In this document: positions 8,099-28,734 of the stretch, one piece after another
How positions within the stretch are numbered: the stretch's first letter is position 1
Layout: every line of letters begins with the position of its first letter
Origin: Geotalea uraniireducens Rf4
GTDB lineage: Bacteria > Desulfobacterota > Desulfuromonadia > Geobacterales > Geobacteraceae
Assembly: GCF_000016745.1 (NCBI RefSeq)
Contig: NC_009483.1
Coordinates: 4,710,001-4,742,000, forward strand
Length of the DNA stretch: 32,000 nucleotides
Reading direction: 5' to 3'
The notes under the pieces: generated by a model
What the model was told of the DNA's origin: nothing
What the model saw: the letters and a program-made list of their open reading frames with translations, nothing else
Database searches by the model: none
Position numbers and translations under genes: made by a program

Positions 8099-8949
8099 AA
8101 AAGTCGCCCACCGACCACCCGTTCAATCCCATTCGGATCTTTTGCCGTGAACAATTCGCCAAAGCCGGTCTTATCCAACAGCCCCAGCACCGCTTCAGCC
8201 TGCCCTACCCCGACCTCGAACAGGAGCCACCCCCCGGGATTAAGATAGTCAGACGCAGCCGGGACAATAAGGCGATAGAAATCAAGCCCGTCCGCCCCTC
8301 CATCCAGGGCCTGGATCGGCTCGTAGTCCCGTACCTCCGGTTGCAGCGTCTTCAGGTCATCGGTCGGAATATAGGGGGGATTGGAAACGATCAGATCGAA
8401 CCGCTGGTCCTGAAACGGCTCGAACAGCGATCCTTCGAACAGGCTGACCGTGACGCCCTGTTTATCGGCATTTTTCTGCGCCAGGACCAGCGCCTGCGGA
8501 GAACTGTCCACGCCGAGAATCGTCGCCGTGGGAAGTGCCTTGGCCAGGGCAACACTGACACAGCCGCTCCCCACTCCGATATCGAGGATTCTGCAATGCT
8601 CACCGCATCGCGCCGCTGCTTCCGCCACGAGCACTTCCGTGTCATGGCGGGGAATGAGGACGGCCGGCGACACCTCGAACTCCAGCCCCATGAATTCCTG
8701 GGAGCCAAGTATGTACTGGAGCGGCTCACGTTTGCTCCGGCGGGTCACCATGCCACGATAGCCGGACAGTTCAGCCTCTGTCAACGGTTTGTCGAAATTG
8801 ACATAGAGTCCCACACGGTCGAGACCGAGTACTGCGCAGAGCATCCATTCCGACTCCAGACGGGCGTTTTCCACCCCCTTCTGCGCCAGAAACTCCTTGG
8901 TCCAGGTAAGGACCTTGAGGACAGTCCATGTTTCCTGCTGATTTGCCAT
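8095..8949 (-). CDS. prmC: Peptide chain release factor N5-glutamine methyltransferase PrmC
   Basis: 284 aa. SAM motif ILDIGVGSGC and catalytic NPPY (VSNPPYIP). It lies immediately downstream of prfA. Confidence 0.9.
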   Translation of the reverse strand: MANQQETWTVLKVLTWTKEFLAQKGVENARLESEWMLCAVLGLDRVGLYVNFDKPLTEAELSGYRGMVTRRSKREPLQYILGSQEFMGLEFEVSPAVLIPRHDTEVLVAEAAARCGEHCRILDIGVGSGCVSVALAKALPTATILGVDSSPQALVLAQKNADKQGVTVSLFEGSLFEPFQDQRFDLIVSNPPYIPTDDLKTLQPEVRDYEPIQALDGGADGLDFYRLIVPAASDYLNPGGWLLFEVGVGQAEAVLGLLDKTGFGELFTAKDPNGIERVVGGRLL

Positions 8950-12350: not shown

Positions 12351-13598
12351 TCACTTACTCATGGAATCAAGGAACGCCTGGTTACCCTTGGTCCCCTCAA
12401 GCTTGGAGATGAGGAATTCCATACTGTCCACCACATTCATGGGATGGAGCACCTTGCGCAGAATCCAGATCCGGTTGAGGGCGCTTTTCTCGATGAGAAG
12501 TTCCTCCTTGCGGGTACCGGACTTGTTAATGTCGATAGCCGGGAAGGTACGCTTCTCGACCAGCTTGCGGTCGAGATGAAGTTCCATGTTGCCGGTCCCT
12601 TTGAACTCTTCGAAGATGACCTCATCCATCTTGCTGCCGGTATCGACCAGGGCAGTGGCGATGATCGTGAGCGAGCCGCCCTCTTCGATGTTGCGGGCTG
12701 CACCGAAGAAGCGCTTCGGTTTGTGCAGGGCATTGGAGTCGACGCCGCCGGAAAGGATTTTGCCGGAAGGGGGAATGACCGTATTGTAGGCACGGGCCAA
12801 ACGGGTAATGGAGTCAAGGAGGATCACCACATCCCGCTTGTGCTCGACAAGCCGTTTGGCCTTCTCGATTACCATCTCCGCCACCTGGATATGACGCGAG
12901 GCGGGCTCATCGAAGGTGGAGGAAATCACCTCTCCGTTGACCGAGCGCTGCATGTCGGTCACCTCTTCCGGACGTTCATCGATGAGAAGGACGATAAGGA
13001 ATACTTCGGGGTGGTTTTCGGCAATGGAGTTGGCGATATTCTGGATCAGCATGGTCTTGCCGGTGCGGGGCGGTGCGACGATCAGACCGCGCTGCCCCTT
13101 GCCGATGGGCGCTATCAGCTCCACCACCCGCATCGGCATATTGTCGGGCGTTGTCTCAAGCTTCAGCTTCTCTTCGGGATAAAGTGGCGTCAGGTTGTCG
13201 AAGAGGATCTTATCCCTCGCCACATCCGGCGATTCATGGTTGACAGATTCAACCTTGAGCAGGGCGAAATAACGCTCACCCTCCTTGGGAGGCCTGATCT
13301 GGCCGGAAACGGTATCGCCTGTGTGAAGGTTGAAACGGCGGATCTGGCTTGGGCTGACATAGATGTCGTCCGGCCCCGGCAGATAGTTGTAATCCGGCGC
13401 CCTCAAGAAACCAAATCCATCCGGCAGGGTTTCAAGCACACCCTCGCCAAAGATCATGCCGTTTTTCTCGGTCTGGGCATTGAGGATGGCAAAAATCAGG
13501 TCCTGCTTGCGCAGACTGGAAGCGCCCTCAATATTCAGACCCTTGGCAATAGCGGTCAGCTCATTGATTTTTTTACCCTTTAATTCTTGTAAGTTCAT
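12351..13598 (-). CDS. rho: Transcription termination factor Rho
   Basis: 415 aa. N-terminal [25 protein letters not shown], an RNA-binding domain, and Walker [13 protein letters not shown]. Confidence 0.95.
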
Positions 13599-22038: not shown

Positions 22039-22410
22039 ATGCGAAAAGCTCGATTATGCGTAATAGGTCTGCTTCTTCTGTCCTCATTCGGCTGCGCCAC
22101 TGAAGAGTATGTGCGGCAGCAGGTAGATCCTCTGGCAGACAGGATAGGAAAGCTCGAGTCAAAGGTGACGGGTATTGAGTCAAGGCTGACTGCTCTTGAG
22201 CAAAAAGGGGCTACAGGCTCTGCTGAACTGGAAGCGGCAAAGAAAGAAACGGCCGAAGCTAAAAACCTCGCCGAACAAGCTGCGAAAACAGCTCAGAACG
22301 CTGCCGACAAAGCAAACGAAGCTGCAAACAAGGCTGAAGAAGCTGCCAATAAGGCGGAACAGGCCGCCCAGAAGGCTGTGAAAGCCTTTGAACTGGAGCA
22401 AAAGAAATAA
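22039..22410 (+). CDS. Lpp/OprI-like alanine-zipper outer-membrane lipoprotein ending in Lys-Lys
   Basis: 123 aa. Signal plus lipobox-like LLSSFGC. A coiled-coil region has 7-aa periodicity (AADKANE AANKAEE AANKAEQ AAQKAVK). The C-terminus is ...ELEQKK. GGAGG lies 8 nt upstream of the ATG. Confidence 0.6.
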   Translation: MRKARLCVIGLLLLSSFGCATEEYVRQQVDPLADRIGKLESKVTGIESRLTALEQKGATGSAELEAAKKETAEAKNLAEQAAKTAQNAADKANEAANKAEEAANKAEQAAQKAVKAFELEQKK

Positions 22411-25483: not shown

Positions 25484-26260
25484 ATGGCAAGGAAAAAAAA
25501 AGCTGAAAAAGAACCGAACCTGGAACGCTGGCTGGTTTCTTATGCCGACTTCATAACCCTTTTGTTTGCCGTCTTTGTCACCCTTTATGCCATGTCGCAG
25601 ACCGACAAGAAAAAGGCGGAAGAGGTGGTAGAGTCCTTACGGGAATCATTCGGTTACAGCAAGTCTTCTCCGGTGACGAAACCGAAGATCATCGATTCGG
25701 GCAACATCAACATAATCCCGAACATGCGGCAACAGACGCTGCCGCCGAAACAGGCACAATACGGCAAAACAAGGAGCCACGCCGAGGAAAAGGATTTCAA
25801 GGCAATAAAGGCGGCCATTGAAGCGTATCTGTTGAAGAACGACGCGCAGAACAAGGTCAGTGTCGAGATAACCCGGCGGGGACTCGTGGTCAGTCTTAAG
25901 GAGGTGGGTTTTTTTGATTCCGGAAGCGCCACGGTGCAGCAGAATTCCTACGGACTCCTTGCGCACGTGGCAGAGTCTGTTTCCAATTATACAAATCCGA
26001 TCAGGGTTGAAGGACACACCGACAATGTCCCGATCAGCTCGCACACATTTCCTTCAAACTGGGAACTCTCCACGGCCAGGGCGACAAATCTCGTGCAGTA
26101 TCTGATAAGATATTATGAATTTCAGCCGGACAAGATTTCGGCAACCGGCTTTGGCGAGCATAGACCGATTGCGGACAACAGCACTGCGGAAGGTCGGGGT
26201 AAGAACCGACGGGTCGATATAGTTCTGTTGTCAACGGAGAGTGAGCGGGGAGAGCCTTAG
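25484..26260 (+). CDS. motB: Flagellar stator protein MotB (OmpA-like peptidoglycan-binding C-terminal domain)
   Basis: 258 aa. WLVSYADFITLLFAVFV carries the conserved channel Asp. The OmpA-like C-terminus is RVEGHTDNVPI...NWELSTARATNLV...NRRVDIV. The ATG abuts the motA stop. Confidence 0.9.
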   Translation: MARKKKAEKEPNLERWLVSYADFITLLFAVFVTLYAMSQTDKKKAEEVVESLRESFGYSKSSPVTKPKIIDSGNINIIPNMRQQTLPPKQAQYGKTRSHAEEKDFKAIKAAIEAYLLKNDAQNKVSVEITRRGLVVSLKEVGFFDSGSATVQQNSYGLLAHVAESVSNYTNPIRVEGHTDNVPISSHTFPSNWELSTARATNLVQYLIRYYEFQPDKISATGFGEHRPIADNSTAEGRGKNRRVDIVLLSTESERGEP

Positions 26261-26268
26261 AGGTTAGA

Positions 26269-26434
26269 GGCAGTCGGCAGTCGGCAGTCGGCAGTCGGCA
26301 GTCGGCAGTCGGCAGTCGGTGGTCGGTGGTCGGCAGTCGGTGGTCGGTGGTCGGTGGTCGGTGGTCGGTGGTCGGTGGTCGGTGGTCGGTGGTCGGTGGT
26401 CGGTGGTCGGTGGTCGGTGGTCGGTGGTCGGTGG
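26269..26434 (+). repeat. Heptanucleotide tandem array L: (CAGTCGG)7 (TGGTCGG)2 (CAGTCGG)1 (TGGTCGG)13
   Basis: I counted units by hand from the sequence and found 23 full 7-nt units plus a degenerate last unit. The array is G-rich on the + strand and starts about 10 nt after the motB stop. Confidence 0.95.
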
Positions 26435-26440
26435 TTAAAA
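26433..26440. repeat. IS256 target-site duplication, left copy (GGTTAAAA)
   Basis: An identical 8-mer lies at 27766-27773, immediately outside the other terminal inverted repeat. Confidence 0.8.
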
Positions 26441-27765
26441 GGGCCTGTCAATAGTTTTGTGTAAATGGTTTTGGTTCCCTGTTTTTAATAGCTTGGCATT
26501 CTGTCTTCAAAAAGAATGGAAAAGCGGTTCATGGCAGCTTTCCAGTCTCTGATCGGCAGGGTCCATTTCTTCGCGATGTTTCTCAGCGCCAGGTATAGTA
26601 ACTTGAACATTGCCTCATCATTGGGAAACGAGCCCCGGTTTTTGGTCACCTTTCTGAGTGACATATTCAGTGATTCAATGGCATTGGTTGTGTAAATAAC
26701 CTTTCGTATATCAGCTGGATAGGCAAAAAATGGTATAACTTGCGCCCAGTTCCGGCGCCAGGACTGGCTGATCGTCGGGTGTGTTTTGTCCCATTTTGCC
26801 TCAAATGCTGTCAGTTCCATTTCGGCCTGCTCAGCGGTCGCTGACTGGTAGATAACCTTCAAATCTGTCGCAACTTCTTTGCGTTGTTTCCACGAAACGA
26901 ACTTCAAGGAATTGCGTACCATATGGACGATGCAAAGTTGGACTTGAGTGTTGGGATAAACTATTTCTATGGCCTCAGGGAACCCCTTCAGGCCGTCAAC
27001 GCAGGCAATGAAGATGTCTTGGACACCACGGTTCTTAAGTTCGGTCACAACCTGCAACCAGAACTTGGCTCCTTCGTTTTCGGAGACCCACATTCCCAGA
27101 ACTTCCTTGGCACCGTCTATGTTGATGCCGATGGCCAGATAGACAGCCTTGTTCACAACATGGCCATTGCCTCTGGCTTTGACCCTGATGGCATCCATGT
27201 AAACGATGGGATAAAGCGCATCCAACGGGCGGTTCTGCCAAGCTTTGACCTCTTCAGCTACTGCTTCAGTCACTATTGAAATCAGAGCGGGGGATACTTC
27301 AACACCGTAGATTTCCTCCAAGTGTCCCTGGATCTCACGAGTGGTAAGCCCGCGGGAGTACAGGGAGATAATCTTATCATCGAACTCGGCGAACCGGGTT
27401 TGGCCTTTGGGAATGATGACTGGTTCAAAGCTGCTATCCCGGTCACGAGGGACCTCAATCGGCATGGTGCCAAAATCGCCTTTGATGGTCTTTGCCGACG
27501 AGCCATTGCGTGCATTGCCACCTTTGGCGGAAACGGAAGCATGCTTCTCGTGGCCGAGGTGCAGTGTCATTTCAGCCTGGAGCGCCCGCTGAAGAACAGC
27601 CTTGGTCAACTGCTTCAGCAGCCCGTTTTCCCCTAGAATCTCTTCGGGGGTCTTATAATGTTTGAGTAGATCGTCGATTACGTCGGTGTTAATAGTCATG
27701 TGATCTCCTTAGGGTAACTTGGTGTACCCCCTAATGACCATTTACACAAACCTTTTTACACCCTC
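26441..27765 (-). mobile_element. IS256-family insertion sequence (1325 bp) with terminal inverted repeats and an 8-bp target duplication
   Basis: IRL GGGCCTGTCAATAGTTTTGTGTAAATGG matches the reverse complement of the right end, GAGGGTGTAAAAAGGTTTGTGTAAATGG, at 22/28 positions. It is flanked by direct GGTTAAAA repeats and contains a single transposase ORF. Confidence 0.9.
26485..27699 (-). CDS. IS256 family transposase
   Basis: 404 aa. MTINTDVIDDLLKHYKTPEEILGENGLLKQLTKAVLQRALQAEMTLHLG... and the later DGLKGFPEAI and YTTNAIESLN motifs are typical of the Transposase_mut / IS256 family. Confidence 0.9.
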   Translation of the reverse strand: MTINTDVIDDLLKHYKTPEEILGENGLLKQLTKAVLQRALQAEMTLHLGHEKHASVSAKGGNARNGSSAKTIKGDFGTMPIEVPRDRDSSFEPVIIPKGQTRFAEFDDKIISLYSRGLTTREIQGHLEEIYGVEVSPALISIVTEAVAEEVKAWQNRPLDALYPIVYMDAIRVKARGNGHVVNKAVYLAIGINIDGAKEVLGMWVSENEGAKFWLQVVTELKNRGVQDIFIACVDGLKGFPEAIEIVYPNTQVQLCIVHMVRNSLKFVSWKQRKEVATDLKVIYQSATAEQAEMELTAFEAKWDKTHPTISQSWRRNWAQVIPFFAYPADIRKVIYTTNAIESLNMSLRKVTKNRGSFPNDEAMFKLLYLALRNIAKKWTLPIRDWKAAMNRFSILFEDRMPSY

Positions 27766-27773
27766 GGTTAAAA
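27766..27773. repeat. IS256 target-site duplication, right copy (GGTTAAAA)
   Basis: It is a direct repeat of 26433-26440. Confidence 0.8.
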
Positions 27774-27774
27774 T

Positions 27775-27935
27775 CTTTTTCCTTTTTCCTTTTTCCTTTT
27801 TCCTTTTTCCTTTTTCCTTTCTCCTTTCTCCTTTCTCCTTTCTCCTTTCTCCTTTCTCCTTTCTCCTTTCTCCTTTCTCCTTTCTCCTTTCTCCTTTCTC
27901 CTTTCTCCTTTCTCCTTTCTCCTTTCTCCTTTCAC
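27775..27935 (+). repeat. Heptanucleotide tandem array R: (CTTTTTC)6 (CTTTCTC)16 plus one degenerate unit; a pure pyrimidine tract of about 160 nt
   Basis: I counted units by hand. On the minus strand it reads GTGAAAG(GAGAAAG)16(GAAAAAG)6 and begins 5 nt after the PilZ gene stop codon. Confidence 0.95.
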
Positions 27936-27939
27936 GGTT

Positions 27940-28734
27940 TCAAATGATTCTTTCCTGGCTTAGCTGCAAAAGCCGTCGTTGCTCGCTGAAAATATAGGAT
28001 ATGATGGTTTCCCGCTCCTTCTCGTTGATACGATGGAACCGCATGGCCGCCATGTACTGGGTCCCCTTTTCCCACCGCAGCTTGATCTCATTGCAACGCA
28101 GAACCTCTGCAACCACACGGATGACCCGCGATGGATCGAGAGGTAGAAAAAGATCGATATTCAGCAGAGTCCCCGCCTCCAGCAATTCCGACACCTTGAA
28201 ACGGATGCCGCCGCCGCTCAGATTTATCTGCATCGGCAGTAGCTCCTCTTTGCCATCCCAGTTGACCACTTTAAATCCATCGCCGCTCGGCTCCATCTGT
28301 GGAGTGGGAAGAAACATGAGCCTCTCCCTGGCAGCTGCCCATTGCGCCTCGACAGCGGGAAGGTGTTGATCCGAGGGGATCTCGTATGCAACCGGCACAA
28401 AGAGATCGAGCCGGAAATAATCTCTCCGTTGCTCTTCTACTATTTCGCCAAAAAGTCTCGTGCAAAGGTGCTTGCTATCCCCTGTGATTTCCAGCGTGCC
28501 GCCGCAGCGATAATGAGCCCAGCCGGTCCAAAACGTGATATTCACCTCGACTCCGGCTTCCATTTCCGTATCCGCCGGTACTCCTGTGCCGATAAGTTCC
28601 ATCGAAAGAAGGTTGTTCTCTATTGCGGTTACAACAGCATTGCTTTCGAGAAATTTTTTATTTTTCAGACGGAGAATAACATTGACCTGTTGGTCCGGGG
28701 AAAACTGATTCGAGTATAGTGGGTTCTCAGCCAT
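27940..28734 (-). CDS. PilZ domain protein, YcgR-like (putative c-di-GMP-binding flagellar brake)
   Basis: 264 aa. The PilZ motifs are RRxxxR (QRRDYFR, residues 102-108) and (D/N)xSxxG (NLSGGG, residues 171-176). An N-terminal beta-rich domain occupies the position of the YcgR PilZN domain. The gene lies next to motAB. Confidence 0.7.
   Translation of the reverse strand: MAENPLYSNQFSPDQQVNVILRLKNKKFLESNAVVTAIENNLLSMELIGTGVPADTEMEAGVEVNITFWTGWAHYRCGGTLEITGDSKHLCTRLFGEIVEEQRRDYFRLDLFVPVAYEIPSDQHLPAVEAQWAAARERLMFLPTPQMEPSGDGFKVVNWDGKEELLPMQINLSGGGIRFKVSELLEAGTLLNIDLFLPLDPSRVIRVVAEVLRCNEIKLRWEKGTQYMAAMRFHRINEKERETIISYIFSEQRRLLQLSQERII

Follow-up and report, generated by a model that had tools for sequence, protein, structure and literature searches.

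Heptameric simple sequence repeats (SSRs) are over-represented in the intergenic regions of bacteria, where their function is not known (PMC4692102; PMC4679880). According to Mrazek et al. (2007), as related in PMC4679880 and PMC4692102, heptamers constitute the most abundant class among the longer bacterial SSRs, with polymerase slippage as a possible reason. The present analysis concerns a stretch of 32,000 nucleotides from Geotalea uraniireducens Rf4 (NC_009483.1, positions 4,710,001 to 4,742,000), in the following termed the window, in which the convergent genes for MotB and a PilZ domain protein are separated by two heptanucleotide arrays and an insertion sequence (IS) of the IS256 family. 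Comparison with relatives carrying the same junction suggests that both arrays are quite probably non-coding, hypermutable SSRs, that is, slippage-expanded microsatellites in the 3' tails of the two genes, which would be near neutral.

In their head-to-tail heptamers, their intergenic site in a free-living non-pathogen, their length variation and the slippage origin proposed for them, the arrays resemble the long SSRs with units of 5-11 nt described by Mrazek et al. (2007), as far as that work is presented in PMC4679880 and PMC4692102; they differ from the other long SSRs treated there in that two different long arrays abut and occupy an entire convergent spacer. All properties of long heptameric SSRs or variable-number tandem repeats (VNTRs) that were tested are found at this locus, namely perfect units, a length beyond chance, copy-number polymorphism and a non-coding site. 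A similar placement is known from the GGGAATC and GGGGA(C/T)T heptamers of Xanthomonas and Nostoc, which reside on the sense strand within 50 bp past stop codons in up to 26 units, are rare between divergent genes and vary between close relatives at the same site (PMC4692102). These G-rich heptamers form G-quadruplexes (G4) in vitro; in Xanthomonas they are transcribed, and no regulatory role could be demonstrated there (PMC4692102). The window shares with them the heptameric unit, the variability between relatives and the G-rich sense strand close past a stop codon, since the left array begins 10 nt after the stop of motB and the right one 4 nt after that of the PilZ gene. On the other hand, its units hold GG only and no GGG, GAGAAAG lacks the logic of G-tracts altogether, and the preference for four units is missing; accordingly, neither array contains four or more consecutive tracts of at least three G.

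In the promoters of hmw1A and hmw2A of Haemophilus influenzae, the heptamer (TGAAAGA)13-38 varies between strains through slippage and tunes expression (PMC2651432). It is likewise purine-rich, of similar composition and tens of units long, but belongs to a promoter or 5' region, whereas the window arrays are bounded by two stop codons and have no promoter that they could modulate. Unlike the contingency loci of phase variation, they affect neither a reading frame nor a promoter, as both are situated past the stop codons of convergent genes. The TAACTGA direct repeats of Beggiatoaceae, Cyanobacteria and Bacteroidetes reach up to 43 copies with indels in steps of 7 nt (PMC4679880), and they, too, mix heptamers in one intergenic region and often terminate contigs; however, their unit is a different one and they mostly occur in 2-6 copies directly upstream of start codons. 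Within the same family, Geobacter metallireducens carries GGACCGG in four units at 49 sites and MTYCTGA in five units, both proposed as regulatory sites (PMC2700814). Tandem heptamers are thus a genome feature there as well, though short, fixed at 4-5 units and dispersed, while those of the window are long and variable and were observed at essentially a single locus. The short tandemly repeated repetitive (STRR) heptamers of cyanobacteria, to which the class of long SSRs is similar, are 7-bp tandem intergenic units for which a role in transcript stability was proposed (PMC2670836). Cyanobacteria represent another phylum, however, and STRRs form dispersed multi-copy families, some of which fold into hairpins. 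The STRR units of Mazel et al. from 1990 reportedly comprise CCCCAGT, TTGGTCA and CAACAGT, and would thus have CAGT and GGTC cores in common with CAGTCGG and TGGTCGG. As to whether such arrays had been recorded before, one paper on a Geobacter genome (PMC2700814) already catalogues heptanucleotide repeats, as do PMC4692102 and PMC4679880 on a more general level. The locus is therefore a heptameric SSR of known class and not a new system.

Direct reading, Tandem Repeats Finder and parsing of units agree on the structure of both arrays (Table 1) and reproduce exactly the unit order and block structure given by the original prediction, a note made earlier from the letters of the window. The left array comprises 23 perfect units (26271-26431), which on the sense strand of motB amount to 52% G and 19% C. 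The right array comprises 22 perfect units (27775-27928), followed by a degenerate CTTTCAC (27929-27935), and reads GTGAAAG(GAGAAAG)16(GAAAAAG)6 on the sense strand of the PilZ gene, which is 100% purine (61% A, 39% G). Tandem Repeats Finder reports 93-99% matches and 0% indels for the two arrays without any spacers between units, so that an assignment to CRISPR arrays, with repeats of ~25-40 nt and unique spacers, was correctly dismissed. Two-unit patterns match 17 times (left) and 22 times (right) in the window against 0.36 and 0.22 expected, a count that none of 100 shuffles attained, and outside the arrays there is a single chance-level match with two mismatches to the left unit (8104-8117) and none to the right one. 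The insertion of an IS256 element with an 8-bp target-site duplication, GGTTAAAA, is borne out by Pfam and NCBIfam matches of the transposase (Transposase_mut, E = 1.8e-127; NF033543, 426 bits at a cutoff of 150) and by the flanking copies. The junction as reconstructed without the element was right with respect to arrays and duplication but overlooked an additional T (27774), which separates the second duplication copy from the right array.

Table 1. Coordinates of the features at the motB/PilZ junction of the window.
Feature	Position	Strand	Description
motB, flagellar stator protein	25484..26260	+	Pfam MotB_plug and OmpA; stop codon TAG at 26258-26260
Left heptanucleotide array	26271..26435	+	(CAGTCGG)7(TGGTCGG)2(CAGTCGG)1(TGGTCGG)13 and partial TGGT
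Target-site duplication, copy 1	26433..26440		GGTTAAAA; overlaps final partial unit of left array
IS256-family insertion sequence	26441..27765	-	1325 bp; transposase open reading frame 26485-27699 (minus); imperfect terminal inverted repeats
Target-site duplication, copy 2	27766..27773		GGTTAAAA, 8 bp, same as copy 1
Right heptanucleotide array	27775..27935	-	Plus strand (CTTTTTC)6(CTTTCTC)16 CTTTCAC
PilZN1-PilZ domain gene, cyclic di-GMP (c-di-GMP) receptor type	27940..28734	-	Convergent with motB; stop codon 27940-27942; Pfam PilZN1 E = 2.5e-37, PilZ E = 6.6e-12

The history of the arrays becomes apparent from contigs that encode MotB and PilZ proteins identical to those of the window. The eight that were listed all stop inside or slightly beyond the arrays, as is to be expected of short reads where a tandem repeat exceeds the k-mer. 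In two sets (L002 and L006) the flanks match the window at 100%, which makes them independent runs of the same strain; these same-strain short-read contigs break after ~4 units, so the counts of 23 and 22 are those of the source assembly alone. In three others (L001, L003 and L005), with flanks of 95.5-96.4% identity, only ~2 GAGAAAG units are present on the PilZ side, while the motB side holds at least 10-15 units, in which CAGTCGG and TGGTCGG are interleaved in an order unlike that of the window. Including L008, the motB-side array differs from the window in unit order or number in four contigs. At the end of one of them (L005, 6890-6955) the clean heptamers decay into G-rich noise (GGGGGTGGGGGGCGGGG...), most likely a sequencing or assembly artefact.

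A still shorter allele is found on a 372-kb groundwater contig (L129/L130; 95.3% identity, measured for L129), the PilZ protein of which is 99% identical to that of the window. Its entire spacer spans 61 nt without an IS, with ~2 units on the PilZ side, GAAAGGAGAAAG then ATTTTAACC, and ~3-4 units on the motB side, reading ACCGACC, GCCGACC, GCCGACT, GCC... In L132 (92% identity), at least four GAGAAAG units directly follow the PilZ stop and the contig ends on the motB side, whereas L131 (84%) has a degenerate (AAAGGAT)3 on the PilZ side and ~3 CCGACC-like units on the motB side of an 82-nt spacer. In L001, L003 and L129 the uninterrupted spacer is ATTTTAACC on the PilZ strand and the IS256 element is absent. 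Hence, PilZ-side units number ~2 in these three, at least four in L132 and L002 and 22 in the window, and motB-side units ~3-4, at least 15 or 23 among relatives whose flanks are 92-100% identical. The comparison of copy number between strains that the original prediction had proposed accordingly reveals strong polymorphism at both arrays, and the local slippage expansion of a few substitution variants that it had suggested fits this allelic series well.

Within ~5% divergence, both arrays appear to have grown from seeds of 2-4 units and to have done so independently of each other, to judge by the aligned alleles. The short allele of L129 contains CGGTCGG units, as read from its sequence, and a single transition at the CpG of this unit gives either CAGTCGG or TGGTCGG. 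With CGGTCGG as the ancestor, the apparent double substitution between the two variants resolves into two single changes, each amplified in blocks. The claim that microsatellites can hardly account for two equally large arrays of opposite composition is contradicted by same-species relatives with ~2 plus ~3-4 or ~2 plus at least 15 units at this very junction; given such unequal arrays, the near equality of 23 and 22 units is an accident of one strain, and the pairing is accidental as well. That the arrays are non-coding holds true as well, though the reason adduced, a period of seven, was too strong, because three units make up 21 nt and stop-free frames cross both arrays (open reading frames, ORFs, at 26257-26451 on the minus and 27719-27997 on the plus strand). 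What excludes coding is that copy numbers differ between strains by amounts other than multiples of three.

Among more distant relatives, the nearest named ones are Geotalea species, the PilZ proteins of which are 57-61% and the flanks 74-77% identical and in which the convergent order of motB and the PilZ gene is kept. Directly past the motB stop and on its sense strand, Geotalea toluenoxydans carries (TGATTGG)2(TGAGGAG)7, and Geotalea sp. SG265 has ~4 TGAAGAG units directly past the same stop. In both, a strong hairpin and U-tract follow downstream, which places the array within the 3' untranslated region of motB, upstream of an intrinsic terminator. In L137, with a PilZ protein of 53% identity, a spacer of 22 nt has no repeat. 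The units of different genera bear no relation to each other, so arrays originate time and again at this site rather than being inherited as a conserved element, and on this comparison they seem to come and go at the junction. A second heptamer locus of both Geotalea species lies between flgF and flgG (L133 19976-20088 in G. toluenoxydans; L136 19948-20069 in SG265), where 9-10 units of TGTTCTA/TGTTCTG precede ~4 TAGAACC units, their near reverse complement. On the sense strand these arrays are predicted to form a long hairpin immediately upstream of the ribosome-binding site of flgG (-31 kcal/mol, z = -5.3, and -30 kcal/mol, z = -3.5), and their copy number differs between the two species. 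An enrichment of arrays in flagellar clusters was considered and dropped, as two intergenic regions against none in two housekeeping loci are too small numbers.

Beyond the family, heptamer arrays were surveyed by a genome scan with the degenerate and permissive pattern YRGTCGG in three copies, which yielded at least 120 loci in unrelated phyla and was reused as background survey, and by a metagenome scan with the exact pattern (TGGTCGG)4, which also yielded at least 120 loci. These at least 240 loci from many phyla feature arrays of the same or similar units (GGTGGTC, CAGTCGG, CCACTGA, CGACTGC) with up to 38 units and the same structure of variant blocks. Units with ACTG or ACCA cores (CCACTGA, CGACTGC, CCGACCA, AGTCGGC) occur in Chloroflexota, Planctomycetota, Acidobacteriota, Bacteroidota, Verrucomicrobiota and Actinomycetota; the common cores may simply reflect the search pattern. 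Among the matches listed, 49 of the 120 metagenome loci contain two or more different heptamer arrays, side by side in several cases, and throughout both scans (L009-L128 and L139-L258) several heptamers often share one intergenic region, some pairs being inverted (e.g. L171 and L229). The paired organisation of the window, which had been regarded as special, is thus a common one.

The orientation of strand-skewed arrays located up to 60 nt from a gene end was assessed with crude ORF-based gene calls. Near gene 3' ends, 64 arrays are G-rich and 36 C-rich on the sense strand (p = 0.007), as opposed to 11 and 41 near 5' ends (p = 4e-5), and arrays are about twice as frequent in convergent as in divergent spacers (28:16 vs 76:88, p = 0.06). 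This pattern agrees with the published one of the Xanthomonas and Nostoc heptamers (PMC4692102). In the window, either array is rich in G or purines on the sense strand of the gene upstream of it, the commoner orientation past stop codons, from which the opposite composition at a convergent junction follows necessarily. A replication-strand bias as the source of this opposite composition was rejected for this locus, considering that within 350 bp of a single DNA strand the skews of the two arrays are opposite, whereas each agrees with the sense strand of its own gene.

A further locus with a unit as in the left array, one among the matches listed, is (CCACCGA)5(CCGCCGA)2 (L148, 6598-6677) on a 222-kb Geobacteraceae contig (JGI 3300027566) from the same metagenome as L001, probably of a conspecific. 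Here, a decamer array (CCCCACCTGA) of ~3-4 units runs directly into the heptamers, with a DoxX-like gene on one side and, upstream of plsY, a promoter-like TTGCAC-17-TATGAT on the other. Two ~150-kb high-GC contigs labelled viral (L263/L270, IMGVR_UViG_638276033_000001; L268/L272, IMGVR_UViG_2595698803_000001) each feature two (GGTGGTC) arrays of at least 15 and of 16-19 units on opposite strands, the count for L263 being derived from five pattern matches since the period-7 parser returned no array there. They are unrelated high-GC elements and uninformative for the motB/PilZ locus.

Regarding signals in the spacer itself, promoter-like sites were not found in it, the scan for intrinsic terminators gave sites only inside the IS element and none in the spacer, and an Rfam scan of the whole window matched no family. 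The reconstructed spacer RNA is less structured than shuffled sequence on both strands (z = +3.4), in agreement with the earlier statement that the arrays are not complementary to each other. These features bear on an alternative in which the two arrays serve as a two-way Rho-dependent terminator or insulator, with the distal array loading Rho and halting antisense read-through into the opposing gene, a role compatible with an origin by slippage. The transcript of motB would meet (CUUUUUC)6(CUUUCUC)16, with 39% C and 0% G, and that of the PilZ gene (CCGACCA)n, with 52% C and 19% G, i.e. unstructured, C-rich and G-poor RNA of at least ~60-80 nt downstream of a gene, as is typical of Rho utilization (rut) sites. 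On the PilZ strand, the short allele of 61 nt is C-rich and unstructured, too (-2.2 kcal/mol, z = +2.3), and this lineage lacks an intrinsic terminator in the spacer where the Geotalea orthologues have a hairpin and U-tract for motB. A rho gene with Rho_N, Rho_RNA_bind and ATPase domains resides in the window 13 kb from the arrays (12351-13598, minus strand), which shows only that Rho is present. Yet same-species relatives manage with ~2 CTTTCTC units, so that motB can do without a long C-rich tract; many C-rich sequences satisfy the rut criteria, which are loose; and with the IS256 insertion the motB transcript must traverse 1.3 kb before it reaches the pyrimidine array. Termination of this kind hence appears unlikely, and the broader proposal that the arrays, or the short seeds conserved in the lineage, constitute a candidate two-way Rho terminator built wholly of simple repeats is to be judged, on composition and folding, as decidedly unlikely. 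If it were true, each gene's own G- or purine-rich array would be a poor Rho substrate and its neighbour's array the loading site, slippage could set the level of read-through and of antisense interference between the flagellar stator operon and a gene for a c-di-GMP receptor, and the orientation found in many phyla, with the sense strand G-rich past stops and C-rich ahead of starts, would reflect a role or origin coupled to transcription.

Structural and decoy functions have to be weighed against the same short alleles. Non-B structures, i.e. G4 in the G-rich array and a triplex or R-loop in the purine array, might cause pausing of RNA polymerase or protect the mRNA 3' end. When G4 are allowed in ViennaRNA, the energy of the plus-strand RNA drops from -67.7 to -115 kcal/mol in silico through tandem two-layer quadruplexes in (UGGUCGG)n, the right array is entirely purine on one strand, and the Xanthomonas/Nostoc heptamers with in vitro G4 share the position past stop codons (PMC4692102). 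However, two-tetrad G4 from mere GG runs are weak, the CAGTCGG half has no closely spaced GG runs, even the Xanthomonas repeats have no demonstrated regulatory role (PMC4692102), and the short alleles of close relatives argue against any need for such structures, which makes this explanation very unlikely. H-DNA was discarded in particular, as GAGAAAG, read from the sequence, is not mirror-symmetric as a cyclic unit and a perfect triplex is not expected. Highly improbable is a PilZ 3' tail that modulates flagellar expression as a decoy for CsrA or ribosomes, whose binding and Shine-Dalgarno sites its AGGA/AGGAG motifs resemble. The flagellar context would suit a CsrA decoy, the PilZ sense strand (GAGAAAG)16(GAAAAAG)6 presents 22 GGA motifs, one per 7 nt (...AAAGGAGAAAGGAG...), and purine heptamers with GGA recur in G. 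toluenoxydans, (UGAGGAG)7, and in L131, (AAAGGAU)3. Against this, the SG265 unit UGAAGAG is devoid of GGA, same-species relatives have just 1-2 such motifs, the motifs are not exposed in hairpin loops, the region being unstructured, the spacer yielded no promoter or terminator of its own and no Rfam match of the CsrB/RsmZ type, and a csrA gene was seen neither in the window nor in the fetched flagellar loci. Finally, the break of all same-strain short-read contigs within ~4 units and the poly-G noise at the L005 contig end could point to an assembly artefact or a wrong copy number in the source assembly. This is scarcely credible, since at least eight independent contigs from at least five samples enter the same arrays from unique flanks, L001 and L003 extend from one array through the spacer to the other, and neither the variant blocks nor the clean IS256 duplication resemble assembler collapse or expansion.

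For the slippage-expanded microsatellites that we favour, the following course of events would account for the alleles. The ancestral motB-PilZ spacer may have contained a seed of ~2 units beside the PilZ gene and one of ~3-4 units beside motB, each of which, as the comparison of alleles suggests, would have expanded through replication slippage or unequal recombination. Single-transition unit variants presumably arose and were then amplified in blocks, and the short AT-rich stretch separating the arrays would later have received the IS256 element. Transcription of the adjacent gene probably includes each array as a 3' tail, and since gene function would not depend on the long form, the expansion is likely to be neutral or nearly so. 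Several points weigh against this interpretation. Neutrality and the slippage mechanism are what we infer from the alleles, and heptamers recur at this junction down to 74-84% nucleotide identity with unrelated units, which could mean local selection rather than neutral drift. Moreover, in the 21-kb Geotalea loci inspected, arrays were confined to flagellar-cluster regions (two intergenic regions), and two 21-kb Geotalea housekeeping loci contained no arrays.

The series from 2-4 to more than 20 units within ~5% divergence, including the CpG-transition origin of two unit variants, provides an unusually clean natural record of the birth and growth of a heptamer array. The locus is usable as a highly polymorphic VNTR strain marker for this groundwater or sediment species of Geobacteraceae, and the arrays account for the invariable break in its short-read assemblies between motB and the PilZ gene. 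In conjunction with the orientation bias across phyla, the locus adds to the data on heptamers near gene ends, without thereby resolving the question of their function.

As for the surroundings of the junction, motB is located downstream of flbD and motA, and its protein best matches MotD/MotB models of NCBIfam with scores below the cutoffs of those models. A mini-array at 1769-1789, previously noted for its period of seven, turned out to be of a different nature. It extends over 1769-1792 directly past the hisF stop, reads (GTTCGAG)(GTACGAG)2 on the minus strand and supplies the 5' arm to a structure of 96 nt (1700-1795, minus; -36.8 kcal/mol, z = -4.3), which ends in a GC-rich stem with UUUUU and precedes a hisE-like (PRA-PH) gene. 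From its predicted fold this structure resembles a terminator or attenuator within the operon rather than a microsatellite. Tandem repeats with a period of 21 nt at 22156-22378 (2.4 and 4 copies, 73-75% matches) lie inside an ORF (22039-22410) of the Alanine_zipper outer-membrane lipoprotein family; they encode 7-amino-acid heptads and are unrelated to the arrays.

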